DNA of 64,000 nucleotides from Octopus sinensis (taxonomy: Eukaryota), in assembly GCF_006345805.1 (NCBI RefSeq), contig NC_043001.1, forward strand, positions 91,202,001 through 91,266,000. Reading direction: 5' to 3'. The position numbers were made by a program, and so were the translations under genes. The notes below the pieces were generated by a model, which did not search any database, was not told the origin of the DNA, and saw only the letters and a program-made list of their open reading frames with translations. This document shows, piece after piece, positions 40,179 to 61,530 of this stretch. Within the stretch, counting starts at the first letter, position 1. Each line of letters opens with the position of its first letter.

Positions 40179-40808
40179 TACTTTTAATAAAATATTGAAA
40201 ACAAGCCAACGGCAGCATACATAACCCGCACTTGTTTATGATCTAAATGAAAAATTATCCTAAATAAATGAAAGTTAAACTTCTATTTGCCTGTCAGCTT
40301 TTTGCAATGAGTGAATGACAACAAAATCATAGTGATAGTGCACCACCCTAGTGGCAATCGCGGTAATACAAAACATCACAATCAGAAATACGAGTTTTAC
40401 AATACTTTATGGCAATTCTCTTGGATAAAATATAAATAGCAATACAGTTGATCTGAGAGAAGATAACCATCGTTTACGGTACTCCCATAAATGAGTTTAT
40501 GATAAATTTACGATTTCATACTTTATTCCAGTATGACACAATATTGCATTTACATGTGTAAAATTTATATATCTTTCCCCACAAAAACTACGCCAGTATA
40601 TCTTTTAATAAGCGTATAATGAAACCTATTAAATTTGTTTTATTTTCCAAAAAAAAAAAAAAAAAAGGTCAATGTGAAATGGGAATGCGTCTTAATTGAG
40701 AGTGCATCTTGTACTCCAGCAAATACGATACCTTAATTTTTTTTTTAAGTGATTGCTGAGTAGTAATAGTTATTTTTGAATCTTCTTATAGATGTAATTG
40801 TTTTCCAG

Positions 40809-43800
40809 ATCGGAAGGACTTCGTTGAGTTTCAAATGTAATCGGTGCGATGAGAAATTCCGAACTTTCATATCTTTAATGAAACACAGAAACGTTCCGTC
40901 CAAATATAATGACCGAAAATGCGGGGATATTTTGCCGAAGATTTGCCTTTCAGCCAGTATGGTTGACTTTTTAAAACACAATCGAAATATTAAACTATTC
41001 CAGTGCAAGACATGTCAGAAAGACTTCTCTCATATTACTTACTTCTTGGTTCATTTACGAATTCATAGCAAACAAGCTCCCTACATATGTGATTACTGTT
41101 CTAAAACATTTATTATTGGCTTGAATCTTCAGAGGCACCTGGAGAGTCACAAGACAGATGTTCTGCATCTCCCTAAATGCGAAAGCTGTTCAAATGATAT
41201 TGATAAACTTATGAAGTTATTTAAAGTCGATTCTTATTCAAATTGTTGTCGGTGCCCTTTCTGTTATAAAAATATTAAAGCTGATAAAAATTTCACGGTA
41301 GCACATTTAAGAAGTCACTTTCCAGAACACTCCACTTGTGCCAAATGTAACTTCAGAATTATCCATTACAAAAAGATAATGAGAAAGTTGAAAACAAAAG
41401 TCCTTTTACAAAGTACCCATCGCTCGCTTAAGAGAATAGGTCGAACGGGTATTTCCGTGATAGAATGCGAACGCTGTGGTGAATGGTTCAAGCGGAACCA
41501 GCTTGCAATACATTTAATCTCCCATTCAATGGAGCAACTTCACTGTATGTATTGTGATGTAATCTTCAGAAGTCGTTATTTACTAAAGAAACACGAGGCA
41601 ACTTGTGAAAATAAAGATGTAATTGCTAAATCAGAAGGAATGTCTATGAAATCGGACTTGCTAAAAGAGAGAAACAACCTCAAGCAATGTCCTTTTTGCT
41701 CCCAAATTTTTTTATCTTTCACAACGTTGAAAATGCACTTACCGACTCATGCAGAAAACTATGCTTTGAAACCAGATTTTGAATCATTAGAAGAGGATCC
41801 AGACGAAACAAATTTGGAAACAAGCTCGGAACGTATCCGAGCCCTCAGTTGCATAAATGGTGAAACCAAGACTAACGGGTCTAGTGTGAGGAATTTAAAA
41901 CCAAATGCGTTTAACCACTGTAGTTTTTGCTCAGCTATTTGTCAAAATGTACCAGAACGGAAACTTCATGAAATGGACCATTACGAGATTCCAGCATCTT
42001 ATTCTGAATTTTACTCGAATGAATATAAAATTCAACATCACTCAAATTTGCTTTATCAGTGTAAATATTGCAGGAAAGTTTTCATGAGCGCCTGCAACTT
42101 TAATTCCCATATAGACTGTCACTTTAGTAAGCCGCCATTTTATTGTAAAGTCGGCCGCGAAGTTTTTACGAGTCCAGACGGTTTTGACCACGAGAAAGAC
42201 CACTCGATATTACAAACTAGAGATAATTCTCATGCTGTTTCATCCAGTTCTATCCGTTTGTGTGAAATATGCGGAGAAATTTTCCATAATCTAAATATTT
42301 TCAAAAAACATTTAAAATCTCATGAAATGAAGTGTATTAATTGTTCGACGCCCTTTTCCACAGATAAATCGCTTCATGACCACATGAAACATTTAGTACC
42401 AATAACAGGCGATAACGATCGATCAAGACCTGCTCCTCCGAGAGAGAACATAGATGTCGAATTAACTTTAGCAAATGCCAAGAACAACAGGTTTCCGAAA
42501 GCCGAGACATACACTTTTTCAGGTCCAGATAAAAGAAATCTTTCTGTCTCATCCCAAGGTTATGAAACTGGTCTGGATTTTGTTCCTTTCTATAAAAATA
42601 GACCAAACTTAATTCCATCTTCTCCGTATCAATTCGAACCACCCAAAGTTTCCAGTTTTTGTGAGAGACGACTTCTACAAACCGGAAAGAATACAAATTA
42701 TTATAACCCACTGCTGTTGCAAAAAAACAAGAGCGATAGTAATTTTTCAGTGGCTGGCAGCAATGGTTTCTCTCGCTTTAATGATGGAAACGAAGCATAT
42801 AGACCCAAGCCAACTCGCGTGAATATCAATTGTAATTTTTCTAGTCGAGAGGAAATAGGTCTTCCCCACAAAAGTGTTAATAGCCCAGTAAATGAAAACT
42901 TAGGTATGGATAACTTTAATGCTTTCAAATCTATGAACACTGTTGCTGCATTTGAGCCACTCAAAATAGAACCGACTAACTCCCGGTATCAGAATCATTA
43001 TTCTTGCAGCAGAAATAAACTAGAATCATCAAATATTTTTGATAATAAACAAGAATGTGGTTTAATTTTAGACATTCCATTTGATAAATATCCCAACGCT
43101 TTAGACTTCAGGGATGAAAACCAACTTAATAATCAGAAAGAAAATGAAAACAACTCAGTTTTGATTCAAGCAGGTTCAAGCTCCACTGGAATGTCTCACT
43201 TTAAGGAAAACAATTGTTTAGTTATTGATACAAATGATAGTAGCTTAGAGCAAAGTATTTGTGAAAATTGGGAATCTAAACAAAAGGGAAAAGATTCTGA
43301 TAAATTTCAGCTGAAAGAGCACACTGCATTAGTATCGGCTTCTCCATTGCAAAAACATCCGAGTAAGAGATATCAACCGGCTGATATCTACTTTTCAAAA
43401 TCCAGCACAATAAAGGAAGAGTTAGGATGTCTGTCGAAGTCTAAATCAAAAAATATCTACAGCGAGTATAATTTTCCAAAATATTCGATTTCACTTGAAA
43501 ACAAATCACTATATGCTACTTCTCAATCCAACAATTGTCAAGATAAAGAAAGTACCTGTCAAAACAGAAGGAATTTCTTAAAAATTCCCGAAGTACATTC
43601 AAACTGGAACAATAACGGAAACATATCAGAAAAATTGATGATTACAAAAATGTCCAAAACTCCAATAAAAAAGGGTGACGCTGGCTGTCATGCGTCAGTG
43701 AATGAAAACCACTTCAGTGACGCGAATAACAATACATTATGCGACAATCTGACAGATTACACACACACTACGTTAGCGACATCTTGTGATCGCGAAGAAA

Positions 43801-43817
43801 ACTTTTCTTTTATATAA
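40809..43817 (+). CDS. Multi-C2H2 zinc-finger protein, main coding exon (~1000 aa)
   Basis: 3-kb open frame after a ttttccAG acceptor; about ten C2H2 fingers (e.g. CKTCQKDFSHITYFLVHLRIH, CDYCSKTFIIGLNLQRHLESH, CEICGEIFHNLNIFKKHLKSH); N/S-rich C-terminal half. Confidence 0.92.
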   Translation: MGRTSLSFKCNRCDEKFRTFISLMKHRNVPSKYNDRKCGDILPKICLSASMVDFLKHNRNIKLFQCKTCQKDFSHITYFLVHLRIHSKQAPYICDYCSKTFIIGLNLQRHLESHKTDVLHLPKCESCSNDIDKLMKLFKVDSYSNCCRCPFCYKNIKADKNFTVAHLRSHFPEHSTCAKCNFRIIHYKKIMRKLKTKVLLQSTHRSLKRIGRTGISVIECERCGEWFKRNQLAIHLISHSMEQLHCMYCDVIFRSRYLLKKHEATCENKDVIAKSEGMSMKSDLLKERNNLKQCPFCSQIFLSFTTLKMHLPTHAENYALKPDFESLEEDPDETNLETSSERIRALSCINGETKTNGSSVRNLKPNAFNHCSFCSAICQNVPERKLHEMDHYEIPASYSEFYSNEYKIQHHSNLLYQCKYCRKVFMSACNFNSHIDCHFSKPPFYCKVGREVFTSPDGFDHEKDHSILQTRDNSHAVSSSSIRLCEICGEIFHNLNIFKKHLKSHEMKCINCSTPFSTDKSLHDHMKHLVPITGDNDRSRPAPPRENIDVELTLANAKNNRFPKAETYTFSGPDKRNLSVSSQGYETGLDFVPFYKNRPNLIPSSPYQFEPPKVSSFCERRLLQTGKNTNYYNPLLLQKNKSDSNFSVAGSNGFSRFNDGNEAYRPKPTRVNINCNFSSREEIGLPHKSVNSPVNENLGMDNFNAFKSMNTVAAFEPLKIEPTNSRYQNHYSCSRNKLESSNIFDNKQECGLILDIPFDKYPNALDFRDENQLNNQKENENNSVLIQAGSSSTGMSHFKENNCLVIDTNDSSLEQSICENWESKQKGKDSDKFQLKEHTALVSASPLQKHPSKRYQPADIYFSKSSTIKEELGCLSKSKSKNIYSEYNFPKYSISLENKSLYATSQSNNCQDKESTCQNRRNFLKIPEVHSNWNNNGNISEKLMITKMSKTPIKKGDAGCHASVNENHFSDANNNTLCDNLTDYTHTTLATSCDREENFSFI

Positions 43818-44200
43818 CATCCCAATCCAAACTAGCTGCCTTCGTTAGGTAACAAAGAAGAGGGATAACAACTTAAGGACTTTAAAGTTTATCGGAATAG
43901 ATAAACAATATATTTTTGTTTGATTCTCTATAACGGTGTCTTTTTTTCAGCCTGCAAAATATACGGTATTTTCTTTTAATATTCTTTGAGTTTGAATCAA
44001 AATAATCCGATGAAATTAGTAAGGAATAATAATCAGATGATTAATTATGATTTTAAGAGTGAATTTATTTTGTTTTGTGAAATATTTTGGAATATTACAT
44101 TTTTGTATTTGGTTTGTAAAATTCTTGATGTAAACTCGTGTGTAGAGAGAAATTTTGCTACACCTCAGGACGGTTATTACGCCAATAATGAACACGCGTC

Positions 44201-44433
44201 CTGATTCTATTTTACTTCTTTATTATTCGTCAATTGGTTAGCTATTTAACCAACTAACTAATCGATCGTTTTATTAATCATTCAATTAAGCTGAGAAGGT
44301 ATGGTCGTCGAAGAGGTCGCGAATGGCGACGAATAAACTTGGGCAAACACAACTGATTAATCAAACAATCGACTAGTTAGTTGGTTAAACAGCTAACCAA
44401 TTGAATAATAATAAAGAAATGAAATTGAGTCAG
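44201..44433. repeat. Inverted repeat: ~80-bp arms, 73-bp spacer
   Basis: caattggttagctatttaaccaactaacta... pairs with ...tagttagttggttaaacagctaaccaattg. Confidence 0.9.
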
Positions 44434-44636
44434 AGCATGTGACTATTATGGACATAATGACCCTTCCCCAAAACGCCAAAATATTTTGGAATAATTGTTT
44501 ATCAAACTTGCGCTTATATATTTGTTTTGCAAGATTCCTGATGTGAAATTGTGGGCTGAAACATAATTCAGGATGGTCTTTTTTGGCCAAATACACACAC
44601 ACCTCTGTAAATGTAATATGTGACAATTATTCGGTA

Positions 44637-44705
44637 GCCATGATAAAACTCCGAGTTTCGGATATCAGGGTGGAAATCCACACCCCATCTCTTCAGTTAT
44701 CCGGC
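44637..44705 (-). ncRNA. Type I hammerhead ribozyme (left arm, minus strand)
   Basis: gataa-CTGAAGA-stem II-cGAAAC-tc-g-ga-GTT-ttatc on the minus strand; catalytic core intact. Confidence 0.75.
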
Positions 44706-44755
44706 CATCAGAAAAAATGCTATGAAAATGCATTTTCATAGCATTTTTTCCGATG

Positions 44756-44825
44756 GCCGGATAACTGAAGAGATGGCGGCGTGGATTTCCACCCTGGTAT
44801 CCGAAACTCGGAGTTTTATCATGGC
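44756..44825 (+). ncRNA. Type I hammerhead ribozyme (right arm, plus strand)
   Basis: CTGAAGA at 44765-44771, GAAA at 44803-44806, stem III actc-g-gagt, GTT triplet at 44813-44815, stem I gccggataa/ttatcatggc. Confidence 0.78.
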
Positions 44826-45007
44826 TACCGAATAATTGTCACATATTACATTTACAGATAAATTCCTTTATTTATATTCGTCTTTCACTTCAAGGACAGT
44901 AAAATAATAATAATAAAGCTGAAGTGAAGAACGAATCACTAGCTTAACTAGAGGGGCTGCTACTTTGGTTTGCGATCTACGTGTCAGGAAGCTACTTTTG
45001 TATGCGA

Positions 45008-45319
45008 TGTTACACGTTCATATCTATGTGTATACGTAGGTATACGTCGGCATGAGTTCGAATTCCACCGCTGCCACCATGTTATGTATTCCTTTGGTTC
45101 GTTTTGGGATAATAACTCACTGAAGGCATTATTATGATTATGCGTGTTTATTTACTTGGCATGTTTACAAACTGTATATGTATAGCGGAGTGATACACGT
45201 TGTGCGTATCGGCCTTAGACACAGTTCATACTGTTTACTAGATGCACTTAACGAAATAGTACTAATAGTGGGGATGTATTCGTATACCTACGTATACACA
45301 TAGATATGAACGTCTAACA
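45008..45319. mobile_element. Non-autonomous Ginger-like element (312 bp)
   Basis: TGT...ACA termini; 39-bp TIR with one mismatch; 4-bp TSD GCGA. Confidence 0.7.
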
Positions 45320-46053
45320 GCGATTTACTCTTTATATTGCGATATACCAGAGAAGTTATACTTATCAACAACAAGGATAACACCAGTATCGGTTTCGAGA
45401 GAATGTCTAGTTAGAGAGTATGAAGCATAAGTTCGTTTTAAATTTGCTTCTTTCTAATTTCTTTTTAATAGTAAAATGTATAAAATTTTTTTTTTTTTTT
45501 TTTAGTTTTCTAACTGATATTCGTTTGATTTCCTCATAAAATTTTAGTAAACTTGTTTCAAATCTGCTTCATTTTAATTTTTTAAAATATATGTATAAAA
45601 ATGTAAGAATGTTTTACTTAAAGCCATAATAAATAAATGAAACGTGTAGATCGCTTACTAAAGTGGAATTTGACTCTTGTAGATCACGTTAGCTACGTAG
45701 ATCGCATACCAAAGAGCACCTTAGAGGGGGAAGTCCGCTATGGGTGGCATCACTTTTGGATCTGCTGTATTTTTTTTTGGGGGGGGGGTCAAGATAAAGG
45801 GACATCCCGGGCGGCACACACTCTAGCTACGCTAATAGAACGAATATATTGTGTGTGGGGAAAAAATCCCGAAATAAACACTTAAATTTTGTTTCTGCCC
45901 CGATGAGATGGCAATTATTTTTGTTCAAATAAAAAGTTTTGTACACTAATATAAATCTTTGAAATACATTGTATTACATTTTTCTTATGTTTATTTGTAT
46001 CTATGTCTTCTTATATATACATATACATGATATAAGAATTTTTATGTAAACTT

Positions 46054-46379
46054 AGGCGCAGGAATAGCTTGCTTACGAACCACATGGTTCCGGGTTCAGT
46101 CCCACTGCGTGGCACCTTGGGCAAGTGTCTTCTACTAGCTTTGAGTGGATTTGGTAGACGGAAACTGAAAGAAGCCCGTCGTATATATGTATATTTGTGT
46201 TTTTGTCCCCCCGGCATCGCTTCTGGTGTGCTTACGTCGCCGTAACTTAGTGGTTCGGCAAAAGAGACCGGTAGAATAAGTACTAGGCTTACAAAAAATA
46301 AGTCCTGGGGTCAATTTGCTCGACTCAAAGTGGTGCTCCAGCATGGCCGCAGTCAAATGACTGAAACAAGTAAAAGAGA
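46054..46379 (+). mobile_element. SINE family 1
   Basis: Head and tail present, internal deletions. Confidence 0.8.
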
Positions 46380-47009
46380 ACACGAAATTTCTTTTTTTTT
46401 AGAACGTGGTATCTCGAAGCGCACAAAACTGTAAATAAAAGCGTGTAAATATTGGGTTAGAAAGACTTTGGATAGATGGAGCCCAAGGCTCCGTGGAACT
46501 TGAACCCACGTATCCCTCTTAATATAGCAGAAAATGATTTCAGAATAAATGGGGATTTGACTGCTGATTTTGGAATGTGAAGCTACCGAATGGTGCTGTG
46601 CAGTGTGTTAATAGCTAATATTTTAATGTTTCCTGCATCAAAATATTAACAATAATTATTCAGTGAAGACGGGAAACAATATTTTTCTAATATCATCGTT
46701 CTTCTATTAATTTCGTTGGAAGACAACGAAACGAATCGTATCCGTTGGTGTGAAAGCTTATATCATGCAAGCAGCACTAAAAGCTGATTAATTGGTATTA
46801 AAATTGTCCCCTTTACGTTCTGAATTCTAATTCCGCTGAGGTCTACTTTATCTTTCATCCTTCTGGGGTCGATAAAATAAATACCAGTAAAACACTGTGG
46901 TCGATATTATCGACTTAGCCTGTTGGCCTTGTGCCAAAATTTGAAACTAATATTAAAATTTCCGAGCTGTTTGATAGTTATCTCCCTTGTCAAGGGAGGC
47001 AACTACTTG

Positions 47010-58743: not shown

Positions 58744-59088
58744 TATATATAAAGCTGAAGTTGTCTGTGTGTGTGTGGCAGGTTTGGTAGCCTTCAACTA
58801 ACACTATCTCCTCCGAGAACCTGCAGCGCTAGTTGACCAAAATTGAGAGTATGATAGAATGTTAAGACCAAAAATTATTTACATCAAAAAGGTGCTTTTT
58901 TCTATGAAAATCCCTATTTTTTACGATTTTTTTACTGTTGTGTCACCATTTATCGGTGTATTTCAACCAGAAAAATGTTCATTTAAAGAGAATAAGCTAC
59001 ATAATGCAAAATTTTTACTTTTCAAAAATTCCAATTCTAAAGGGTCGAAAAGAAAACAAACCCAAGCAATGCTGGGCTATACTGCTAG
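58744..59088 (+). mobile_element. Non-autonomous Helitron
   Basis: tatataaagctgaagttgtctgtg start; cccaagcaatgctggg hairpin and CTAG|T end; ends related to those of the 56574 element. Confidence 0.8.
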
Positions 59089-59154
59089 TATATATATATA
59101 TATATATATAAATAGGTTAGAAAAGAACAAGGCGAAATCAAAAGGTATAAGTAC

Positions 59155-60195
59155 CTCATCTTCTTCAATTGTTTTTTCAATAGAAGCTACTTGTTGGAGC
59201 AGTTTCTCTGTAAGGTCCTCTTGTTTCTTTGGCTCTTCTCTTACAATAATCTCTTCCTCTTTTACTTTTTCTTCTAGATTTCTTTTCATTCTCAAAGGAA
59301 CCTTTGGTTTTACTTCTTTCCCTCGTAGTTCTGATAGTCTTTCAACTAAACTGTCTTTGCTGTCATCCACAAAAGAAGGACAGGCATTTACCAGTCCAAC
59401 AGTCTCTGCTCCTATTATCTCTTCTGCCTGTCTCACATTGTCAACATTTTCTTCAGATTCATCAGACTCAGGACCATTCCGGTTCTGAGTCAGAGCGCTT
59501 TTAAAGAAATCATCAATTTCTTCTTCTTTTTCTGAAATAGGCGTCAGTCTGACACCATGTTTATCAAAATTAAGATGATAGTCCGAGTGATTGCCAACAT
59601 TGTTGTCATAGTCTTCATCACTGTCATCATCACTCTCATTAACACCATCAAGCTCATTTAAATTTATGTCAATTTTGGGAAGTGTTCGCTTTTTGATGGT
59701 TGGTCTGATTTTTACCGGCGACATGCCTAGATTATAATTGTCATTTTCATTTCCATTGACAGGTCCATTGTCAAGTATTGCTACATTTGACTGCCTGTCA
59801 TTGACTTCACTAAAAAAATCAACAAAGGCACCATTTATATTTCTTTCATAATTATGACTCTCTAACACATCTCCATATGTTACATCTCTCTCATCACGAA
59901 CAGTGTTTTCAGTACCATTTTGCGTTAAATGTTTTGGTACTTCAGGCAAGCATTGGTCCAGTTGTTGAATAGCATCATTATCCAACTGCTGATCCATCAG
60001 CTTCAAGTGGTCCTCATTCAAATTCTGTAATTTCATCTTTGCCATTCGTTGAATCATATGAATCATTGACCGATCTTTGCGCATGCTTTGCAGGTGTTTC
60101 TTGCGAGAGAGATGCTCTACATACTCCTGTTCAGCATTCTCACGAGATGCTCTTTGCTTGCGGAACTCCTCTCTCAAAACATGAGATGGAACAAC
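59155..60195 (-). CDS. Large coding exon (347 codons; coiled-coil and acidic) of the KY/hillarin-like gene
   Basis: ctctatAG acceptor and GAG|GTACTT donor, both phase 0; uninterrupted frame VVPSHVLREEFRKQR...EKTIEEDE. Confidence 0.85.
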
Positions 60196-61247: not shown

Positions 61248-61328
<81 letters not shown>

Positions 61329-61530
61329 ATGTGTGTGTTTGTACCCCCCCCCAACATCGCTTGACAACTGATGCTGGTGTTTATGTCCCCGTAACTTATT
61401 GTTTCGGTAAAAGGGACTGATAGAATAAGTACTAGGCTTACAAAAGAATAAGTCCTAGGGTCAATTTGCTTGACTAAAGGCGGTGCTCCAGCATGGCCAC
61501 AGTCAAATGACTGAAACAAGTAAAAAGAGA
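61074..61530 (+). mobile_element. SINE family 1, full length
   Basis: Standard structure with long central (TA)n(TG)n. Confidence 0.85.

Follow-up and report, generated by a model that had tools for sequence, protein, structure and literature searches.

Inverted insertions of Penelope-like retrotransposons have been described from several directions. Copies that are inverted, truncated on their 5' side and tailed at a single end are on record (PMC8557442), rotifer Penelope elements have head-to-head palindromic junctions (PMC3846280), and hammerhead motifs occur in pairs on opposite strands, 100-700 bp apart (PMC4209133). PMC8557442 treats the formation of these inverted ends and tails as an open question, and in vitro a Penelope protein nicks and extends both target strands, with two reverse transcriptase (RT) start sites that bracket the tail (PMC11167929). 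Among Penelope-like elements, the Hydra clade is defined by an N-terminal RWK motif, DKT, a CxCx5C linker, CxxC and CxH motifs around the E and N residues of the endonuclease, the lack of CCHH cysteines and insertion into (TA)n; a length below 3 kb is a stated tendency, and the octopus element Hydra-1_Obim is among the members given in the supplement (Craig et al., 2021; PMC8557442).

Here we analyze a palindrome in a stretch of 64,000 nucleotides from Octopus sinensis (NC_043001.1, positions 91,202,001 to 91,266,000 of the forward strand), referred to as the window, in whose numbering all positions are given unless a locus is named. The palindrome very probably consists of two head-to-head, 5'-truncated ends of a new Penelope-like family of the Hydra clade, likely laid down in one insertion event and likely inert. 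The locus itself is ordinary, and a rule on the placement of the tail in such pairs is its useful by-product.

Structure of the palindrome

The palindrome has arms of 127 and 128 nt that abut without a spacer and differ at four places, namely substitutions at right-arm positions 44751, 44780 and 44797 and an indel at 44777 (Table 1). A sequence-only reading of the window had described a spacer-less palindrome of about 255 bp some 0.8 kb from the stop codon of a zinc-finger frame; the palindrome is real, and the frame ends 787 nt upstream of it. The centre is perfect, two rare variants are common to both arms, and the predicted fold reaches -220.8 kcal/mol (200 shuffles, z = -35.9). The sequence-only reading had given too short an insertion, for a degenerate tail carries it beyond the right arm to about 44891. 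Tail sequence is found on the right arm alone and is partly deleted, so that a full-length cut-off alone would score this arm as short; a 17-nt inverted repeat (44876-44892 / 44920-44936) overlaps the deleted remnant. No target-site duplication was seen in the flanks at the locus, and the right end of the insertion lies outside any microsatellite, (AC)n being present on the left only. The TCATTT motif at the centre is Inr-like.

Table 1. Features of the palindrome and its surroundings. L269 is a copy of the parent retrotransposon; X1 and X2 are RNA-like sequencing runs.
Feature	Positions	Strand	Remarks
Large last coding exon, C2H2 zinc-finger gene	40809..43817	+	Open frame; X1/X2 contigs stop at AG acceptor 40807-40808, DNA runs continue
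Putative 3' UTR containing the palindrome	43818..45310	+	Linked contigs of two RNA-like runs (one study)
Short (AC)n tract	44593..44602	.	Adjoins left end of palindrome
Left arm	44604..44730	-	5'-truncated retrotransposon 3' end; runs to the short 3' terminus of the family, without a tail; 86% to L269
Type I hammerhead motif, left arm	44635..44707	-	C3 at 44696; predicted cut after 44647; coordinates mirrored from right arm
Head-to-head junction	44725..44736	.	Both arms begin at the C of the element's Inr-like TCATTT motif
Right arm	44731..44858	+	5'-truncated copy of the same retrotransposon end; 88% to ORF-bearing L269 over 44731-44877
Type I hammerhead motif, right arm	44754..44827	+	C3 at 44765; GAAA at 44803-44806; predicted cut after 44815
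Penelope tail	44859..44891	+	Degenerate, partly deleted; right arm only

Hammerhead motifs

Within the 64-kb window a type I hammerhead descriptor matches the two palindrome sites only; 20 first-order Markov resamplings of the window gave three matches in total. Each motif has the CUGANGA, GAAA and NUH elements of type I, together with a G10.1-C11.1 pair and stems I-III, and judged by sequence both cores are intact, so that the type I core claimed for each strand is borne out with the same predicted cuts. The stems had been drawn somewhat differently. The stem III sequence actc-g-gagt stands as proposed, but as a 4-bp stem with a 1-nt loop it cannot close, the monomer having 3 bp and a 3-nt loop, and stem I is made of 5 bp, a bulged A and 6 bp rather than of 9 bp. 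Between two copies stem III becomes an 8-bp duplex of -9.7 kcal/mol. The lowest-energy fold of a single arm (-25.7 kcal/mol) is non-catalytic, and the catalytic fold, with the core held open as a constraint, has -22.0 kcal/mol. Covariance models did not confirm the hammerheads: Rfam reports no hammerhead family for the whole window at gathering score, and none over 44550-44920 at E<=10, where the other families reported, mostly generic miRNA hairpins, all fall below gathering score. Both CUGAAGA and GAAA are kept in 13 of 16 aligned copies (the exceptions are L019, L023 and L029), and two complete ribozymes are found at about 10% of the loci in the position sample described below (8 of 84). 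Other hammerheads with a palindromic stem III were seen at L084 and L090.

The parent retrotransposon

The palindrome arm represents the 3' terminus of a high-copy Penelope-like retrotransposon family, which its motifs and a profile match place in the Hydra clade. A 23-mer from the outer end of the arm has 1,723 exact matches in the genome (control, 0), and a genome search with the arm as a repeat gave 2,317 candidates. Copies end at either of two 3' positions, separated by about 67 nt, and most finish in (TA)n; ATATAT directly follows 23 of 35 scored short ends, in line with (TA)n insertion. Walking 5' from the arm leads with continuous homology through an internal microsatellite and a 3' UTR of about 1 kb into an ORF, the region reached encoding RT followed by a C-terminal GIY-YIG-type endonuclease (L269, L255, L242). 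The link to Penelope drawn by the sequence-only reading was right. A self-contained element of about 440 nt is ruled out, its apparent 5' end being the internal (TA)n.

The copy L269 is a unit of about 3.2 kb in which a short ribozyme arm, inverted, is followed by the ORF body, the 3' UTR and then hammerhead and tail. An N-terminal RWK motif is present in L269 and in the sister copy L277, DKT stands in place of DKG in L270 and L277 (NKT in L269), and the CxCx5C linker reads CSCRDKNLC in many copies. CxxC is present as CGLC, and the His position of CxH varies among decayed copies (Y, H, Q, N, C). On inspection the endonuclease lacks a CCHH motif: its GIY and YIG strands enclose no pair of cysteines, in contrast to Neptune-type L082. 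The span of L269 exceeds the generally short (<3 kb) length of the clade. A family profile built from 17 of 23 database relatives and three genomic fragments matched the genome's Pfam-positive RT/GIY-YIG Penelope ORFs over 597 columns (97.4% probability, E 9e-12); Pfam gave no RT or GIY-YIG match on the family's own fragments, and PDB sequence searches returned no significant match.

The Pfam-positive GIY-YIG loci are themselves not the parent, as they represent families of the Neptune and Penelope types with no relation to the arm, and the parent was reached solely by the 5' walk. Neptune-type Penelope families with open frames of 775-883 codons were found at L081-L084 and L099. The ORF copies seen from this family are broken, and the single 717-aa open copy checked, L277 (G000:C3:133910450-133912300), belongs to a sister Hydra family with 80% DNA identity in the ORF and a different terminal sequence; it has inverted pieces on its 5' side, and 717-codon open frames occur in it and in two other copies. 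Neither a direct pLTR-ORF junction nor a pLTR-ORF-pLTR partial tandem was present among the loci examined, a small sample. Copies running beyond the tail into an ORF were looked for and none was found. Elsewhere in the window, 61294-61340 weakly matches the 3' UTR of the family (79% over 47 nt).

Head-to-head pairs and the one-tail rule

The position sample was drawn from the first 100 matches to the 23-mer listed, all on contig C1, which correspond to 88 distinct loci, 84 of them examined; it omits one pair and the last three places, and six overlapping duplicates were dropped. Half of the 84 loci (42) are head-to-head pairs, 42 are solo and none is tail-to-tail, and at four of the 42 "solo" loci an inverted partner comes from another part of the element. 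Across the 42 pairs arms start anywhere between reference positions 15 and 399, with a peak at 240-279 (43 of 134 aligned pieces), and the junctions range from an overlap of 30 nt to a gap of 57 nt, most falling within a few bases of zero. Copies had been expected to share one centre if the palindrome were a unit; instead the inversion points vary, and the exact centre occurs at two loci genome-wide, this one included. The second locus has neither the two rare shared variants of the first nor its flanks and is an independent insertion. With the palindrome and its flanks as query, about 40 other two-arm loci were found among 40 scored candidates, a set selected for likeness to this palindrome; their lengths varied, and they have no common flank beyond short microsatellite run-through. 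The varied centres, and the recurrence of the exact centre at one other locus with different variants, indicate that the palindrome was made anew at insertion and is not mobile as a unit. At L006 (1420-2151) two tandem palindromic insertions of identical structure, each with an 11-nt spacer, are separated by (TA)n.

The full Penelope tail is on exactly one arm in all 42 pairs, for which independence, given a solo tail rate of 25/42, would lead one to expect 5e-14; a stricter probe taken from the start of the tail scores 41 of the 42 as one-tailed, the exception being a few tail bases on the short arm. Among the 38 simple pairs (four complex loci left out), the tailed arm starts earlier than its partner in 13, later in 21 and at the same position in four, so that simple fold-back of one arm does not explain the other. 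Within a pair the two start positions correlate (rho 0.52, p 9e-4), and they coincide in 5 of 42 pairs. In 29 pairs, derived variants are common to the paired arms at 1.6% of sites, about three times the 0.55% between loci, and the per-site difference is 8.4% for paired and 10.4% for unrelated arms (p 0.07); the median start offset, 35.5 nt, does not fall below that of permuted pairs (p 0.12). Because of the correlated or identical starts and the rare variants shared within pairs, some fold-back, a shared template or later conversion may have contributed.

Pieces of the element's ORF 5' region adjoin the inversion point at L058 (1185-1335) and L179 (870-1063), suggesting template switching during cDNA synthesis. 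At the Inr-like A, an extra non-templated base is G in 9 of 14 arms (p 6e-4), a post hoc hand count made after dropping two duplicate rows, two spurious matches and five arms with a templated C; of the 22 arms in the position sample that span the site, only 3 end there. As a lead, the centre may mark a transcription start, and some arms may be run-off copies of a capped RNA end.

Host context and transcription

Upstream of the palindrome lies a 1,015-codon open frame (40770-43817, +), apparently one exon, with C2H2 fingers in its first half and a long Asn/Ser-rich tail. The runs X1 and X2 behave as RNA, in that their long contigs leave at the splice acceptor at 40807 into other sequence, whereas DNA runs do not. 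Contigs from X1/X2 cover 40807-44221, 44433-44549, 44520-44644 (left junction) and 44838-45272 or 45310 (right junction). The palindrome is probably transcribed within the zinc-finger 3' UTR, a location that we put no higher than likely because no single contig among the X1/X2 contigs listed spans the palindrome or the putative 3' UTR. At 44818, A>G accounts for 97 of 192 (X1) and 45 of 228 (X2) of contig depth, against 0.1-0.3% in two DNA runs, and A>G was also seen at 44764 and 44185 in X2 only; these signals are hints of editing, the reads being mixed with those of other copies and the DNA coming from other samples.

The surroundings hold several further repeats. The putative 3' UTR also holds another inverted repeat, unrelated to the palindrome (44172-44462; 109-nt arms, 81%, 73-nt spacer), which belongs to a MITE-like family with 1,139 candidates and contains the A>G hint at 44185. 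Inverted arms of 42 nt at 45005-45046 and 45281-45322, 95% complementary and 234 nt apart, lie near a drop in RNA-like coverage. A very high-copy short repeat at 46050-46390, presumably an octopus SINE, holds the deepest bins in the run contigs, and on the minus strand 59077-60195 is a 372-codon acidic open frame.

Origin and likely fate of the palindrome

Palindromes are a known artefact class, and no contig crosses the centre among those listed, but a fold-back artefact of sequencing or assembly is barely credible here: the arms differ at four places, the flanks are unique, the tail is on one arm alone, both outer junctions, where a 3' end meets the flank, occur in independent runs (X1: 44520-44644 and 44838-45272; X2: 44838-45046), and half of the sampled copies have the same form. 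Very improbable, too, is the small non-autonomous palindromic retroelement that had been proposed, a 255-bp unit moving as such. The roughly 40 other loci with two long arms of similar length and the peak of arm starts at 240-279 speak for it, but those loci were chosen by likeness to this one and vary in length (248-299 bases matched to at most 274 query bases), the exact centre is found only twice, the second time with different variants, inversion points vary across the 42 pairs, and the same ends are carried by ORF-bearing copies. A MITE or similar palindromic mobile unit was rejected on the variable centres and the lack of any target-site duplication seen. The other proposal, an ambisense ribozyme switch, is unsupported as well. 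Read-through from the zinc-finger 3' UTR would make a 127-bp hairpin as the right arm emerges and, the antisense arm being made first in such an mRNA, this hairpin, a likely ADAR substrate, would mask the single sense ribozyme. That the transcript masks its own ribozyme as a duplex had been foreseen, and it agrees with probable transcription and with a hairpin (-220 kcal/mol) that outweighs the ribozyme fold (about -22) by about 200 kcal/mol; the further idea that editing frees the ribozyme did not survive simulation. With A-to-G changes at 10, 30, 50 and 100% of adenosines, and G-U standing in, generously, for I-U, the hairpin retains -219, -211, -201 and -150 kcal/mol, and the survival of the five core adenosines is 0.59, 0.17, 0.03 and 0, so that the core would be lost before the hairpin opens. 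We consider it improbable that the host has co-opted the hairpin as an editing- or protein-gated switch controlling the zinc-finger mRNA, although both cores are intact, RNA-like contigs reach both outer junctions, A>G occurs at three positions and a related Penelope ribozyme is protein-assisted (PMC11167929). Against these points, one ribozyme per strand allows no dimer in cis, intact cores are to be expected in young copies, the double-ribozyme form is a by-product at 8 of 84 loci, and the A>G hints mix in the reads of other copies, without matched DNA. The chain of events in which ADAR edits the mRNA hairpin, a protein (the RT of the element or a host helicase) opens it or an internal start at the centre bypasses it, and the ribozyme then cuts the mRNA, is improbable to the same degree; if true, with half of some 1,500 or more copies palindromic, the family would be a genome-wide source of gated 3' UTR elements. 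Since the arrangement is common to many other copies and was likely made during insertion, it is probably no ribozyme switch but an ordinary scar of the insertion of the element. The sequence-only reading had itself named an ordinary Penelope inverted end with random inversion points at an untranscribed locus as the alternative to its proposals; the inverted end and the variable points are what we find, and the locus is probably transcribed. We infer that the palindrome is inert, a term to be read in the light of the A>G hints, which show that its RNA may be processed.

As for how such pairs arise, we lean toward dual priming at two RT start sites. The element's RT-endonuclease would nick an AT-rich or microsatellite target on both strands; reverse transcription primed by one strand at the distal start site would give the tailed arm, priming by the other strand at the proximal site would give the short arm, and the two truncated cDNAs would be end-joined into a head-to-head pair. 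It is the one-tail rule that points to each target strand being primed at a different start site before the cDNAs are joined. The ribozyme would ride as passive cargo of the inserted end, given its position just inside the element's 3' end. Self-priming (fold-back) of one cDNA or antisense template, followed by trimming of the tail by the endonuclease, is a possible but doubtful alternative. It has been proposed for rotifer Penelope elements (PMC3846280), and the pairs with identical starts, the derived variants shared by paired arms, and the perfect centre with two rare shared variants at this locus fit it, but if the tailed arm had folded back, the start of the short arm should lie level with or beyond that of the tailed arm, an expectation that fails in 21 of 38 pairs, and the prediction of the reverse direction fails in 13. 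The ORF 5'-region pieces at the inversion points of L058 and L179, and start offsets no smaller than in permutations, also tell against it. Dual priming, in the form that the one-tail rule suggests, predicts one RT start site per target strand, which is testable in the existing in vitro system. Whatever its mechanism, the family deposits many near-perfect hairpins, some of them in transcripts, which may serve editing or small-RNA pathways.

Comparison with known systems

In L1 twin priming, cDNA is primed from both target strands and the ends are joined via microhomology, and L1 inversions hold largely non-overlapping parts of one RNA; in the palindrome, by contrast, both arms copy the same element segment. 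Close to it are the published inverted pLTR insertions (PMC3846280, PMC8557442, PMC4209133), which have the same head-to-head truncated copy, a palindrome at the junction, one tail and hammerheads on opposite strands. They differ in that their tails are 30-40 nt long against about 67 nt here, and in that the tail asymmetry has here been counted (42/42). The one-tail rule is already stated qualitatively in print, and the count is our addition; a literature search, with most subscription journals outside its scope, found no published count. The Penelope hammerheads of PMC4209133, dimer-type and weakly active, fit the single-arm fold and the intermolecular stem III found here. The Poseidon element PAc of Anolis, studied in vitro, has two 3' ends that bracket the tail, AT-rich targets and a hammerhead just upstream, as here (PMC11167929); it belongs to another clade than this family, and that study found no start-site difference between strands, whereas the pairs described here imply one site per strand per event.

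Retrozymes of the non-LTR kind likewise have a short repeat, related to Penelope pLTRs, that carries a type I hammerhead (10.64898/2026.07.22.740005), but the palindrome is not one of them, as their units stand head-to-tail in tandem with a ribozyme per unit on one strand, and the palindrome is head-to-head with one ribozyme per strand. With Hydra-clade elements (PMC8557442) the family has in common the C-terminal endonuclease, RWK, DKT, CxCx5C, (TA)n and a hammerhead near the 3' end, and the stem III sequence actc-g-gagt is the same as in Hydra-2_aMil and Penelope-16_HM (supplement of PMC8557442). The N-terminal protein text of Hydra-1_Obim resembles that of the family by eye, and its ribozyme has the same ctgaagag core, then atg. 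Its stems I, II and III differ, however, and its length is 2,507 bp against at least 3.2 kb here (PMC8557442), on which grounds we regard the family as separate. The arrangement is already known from print; the family itself is new.
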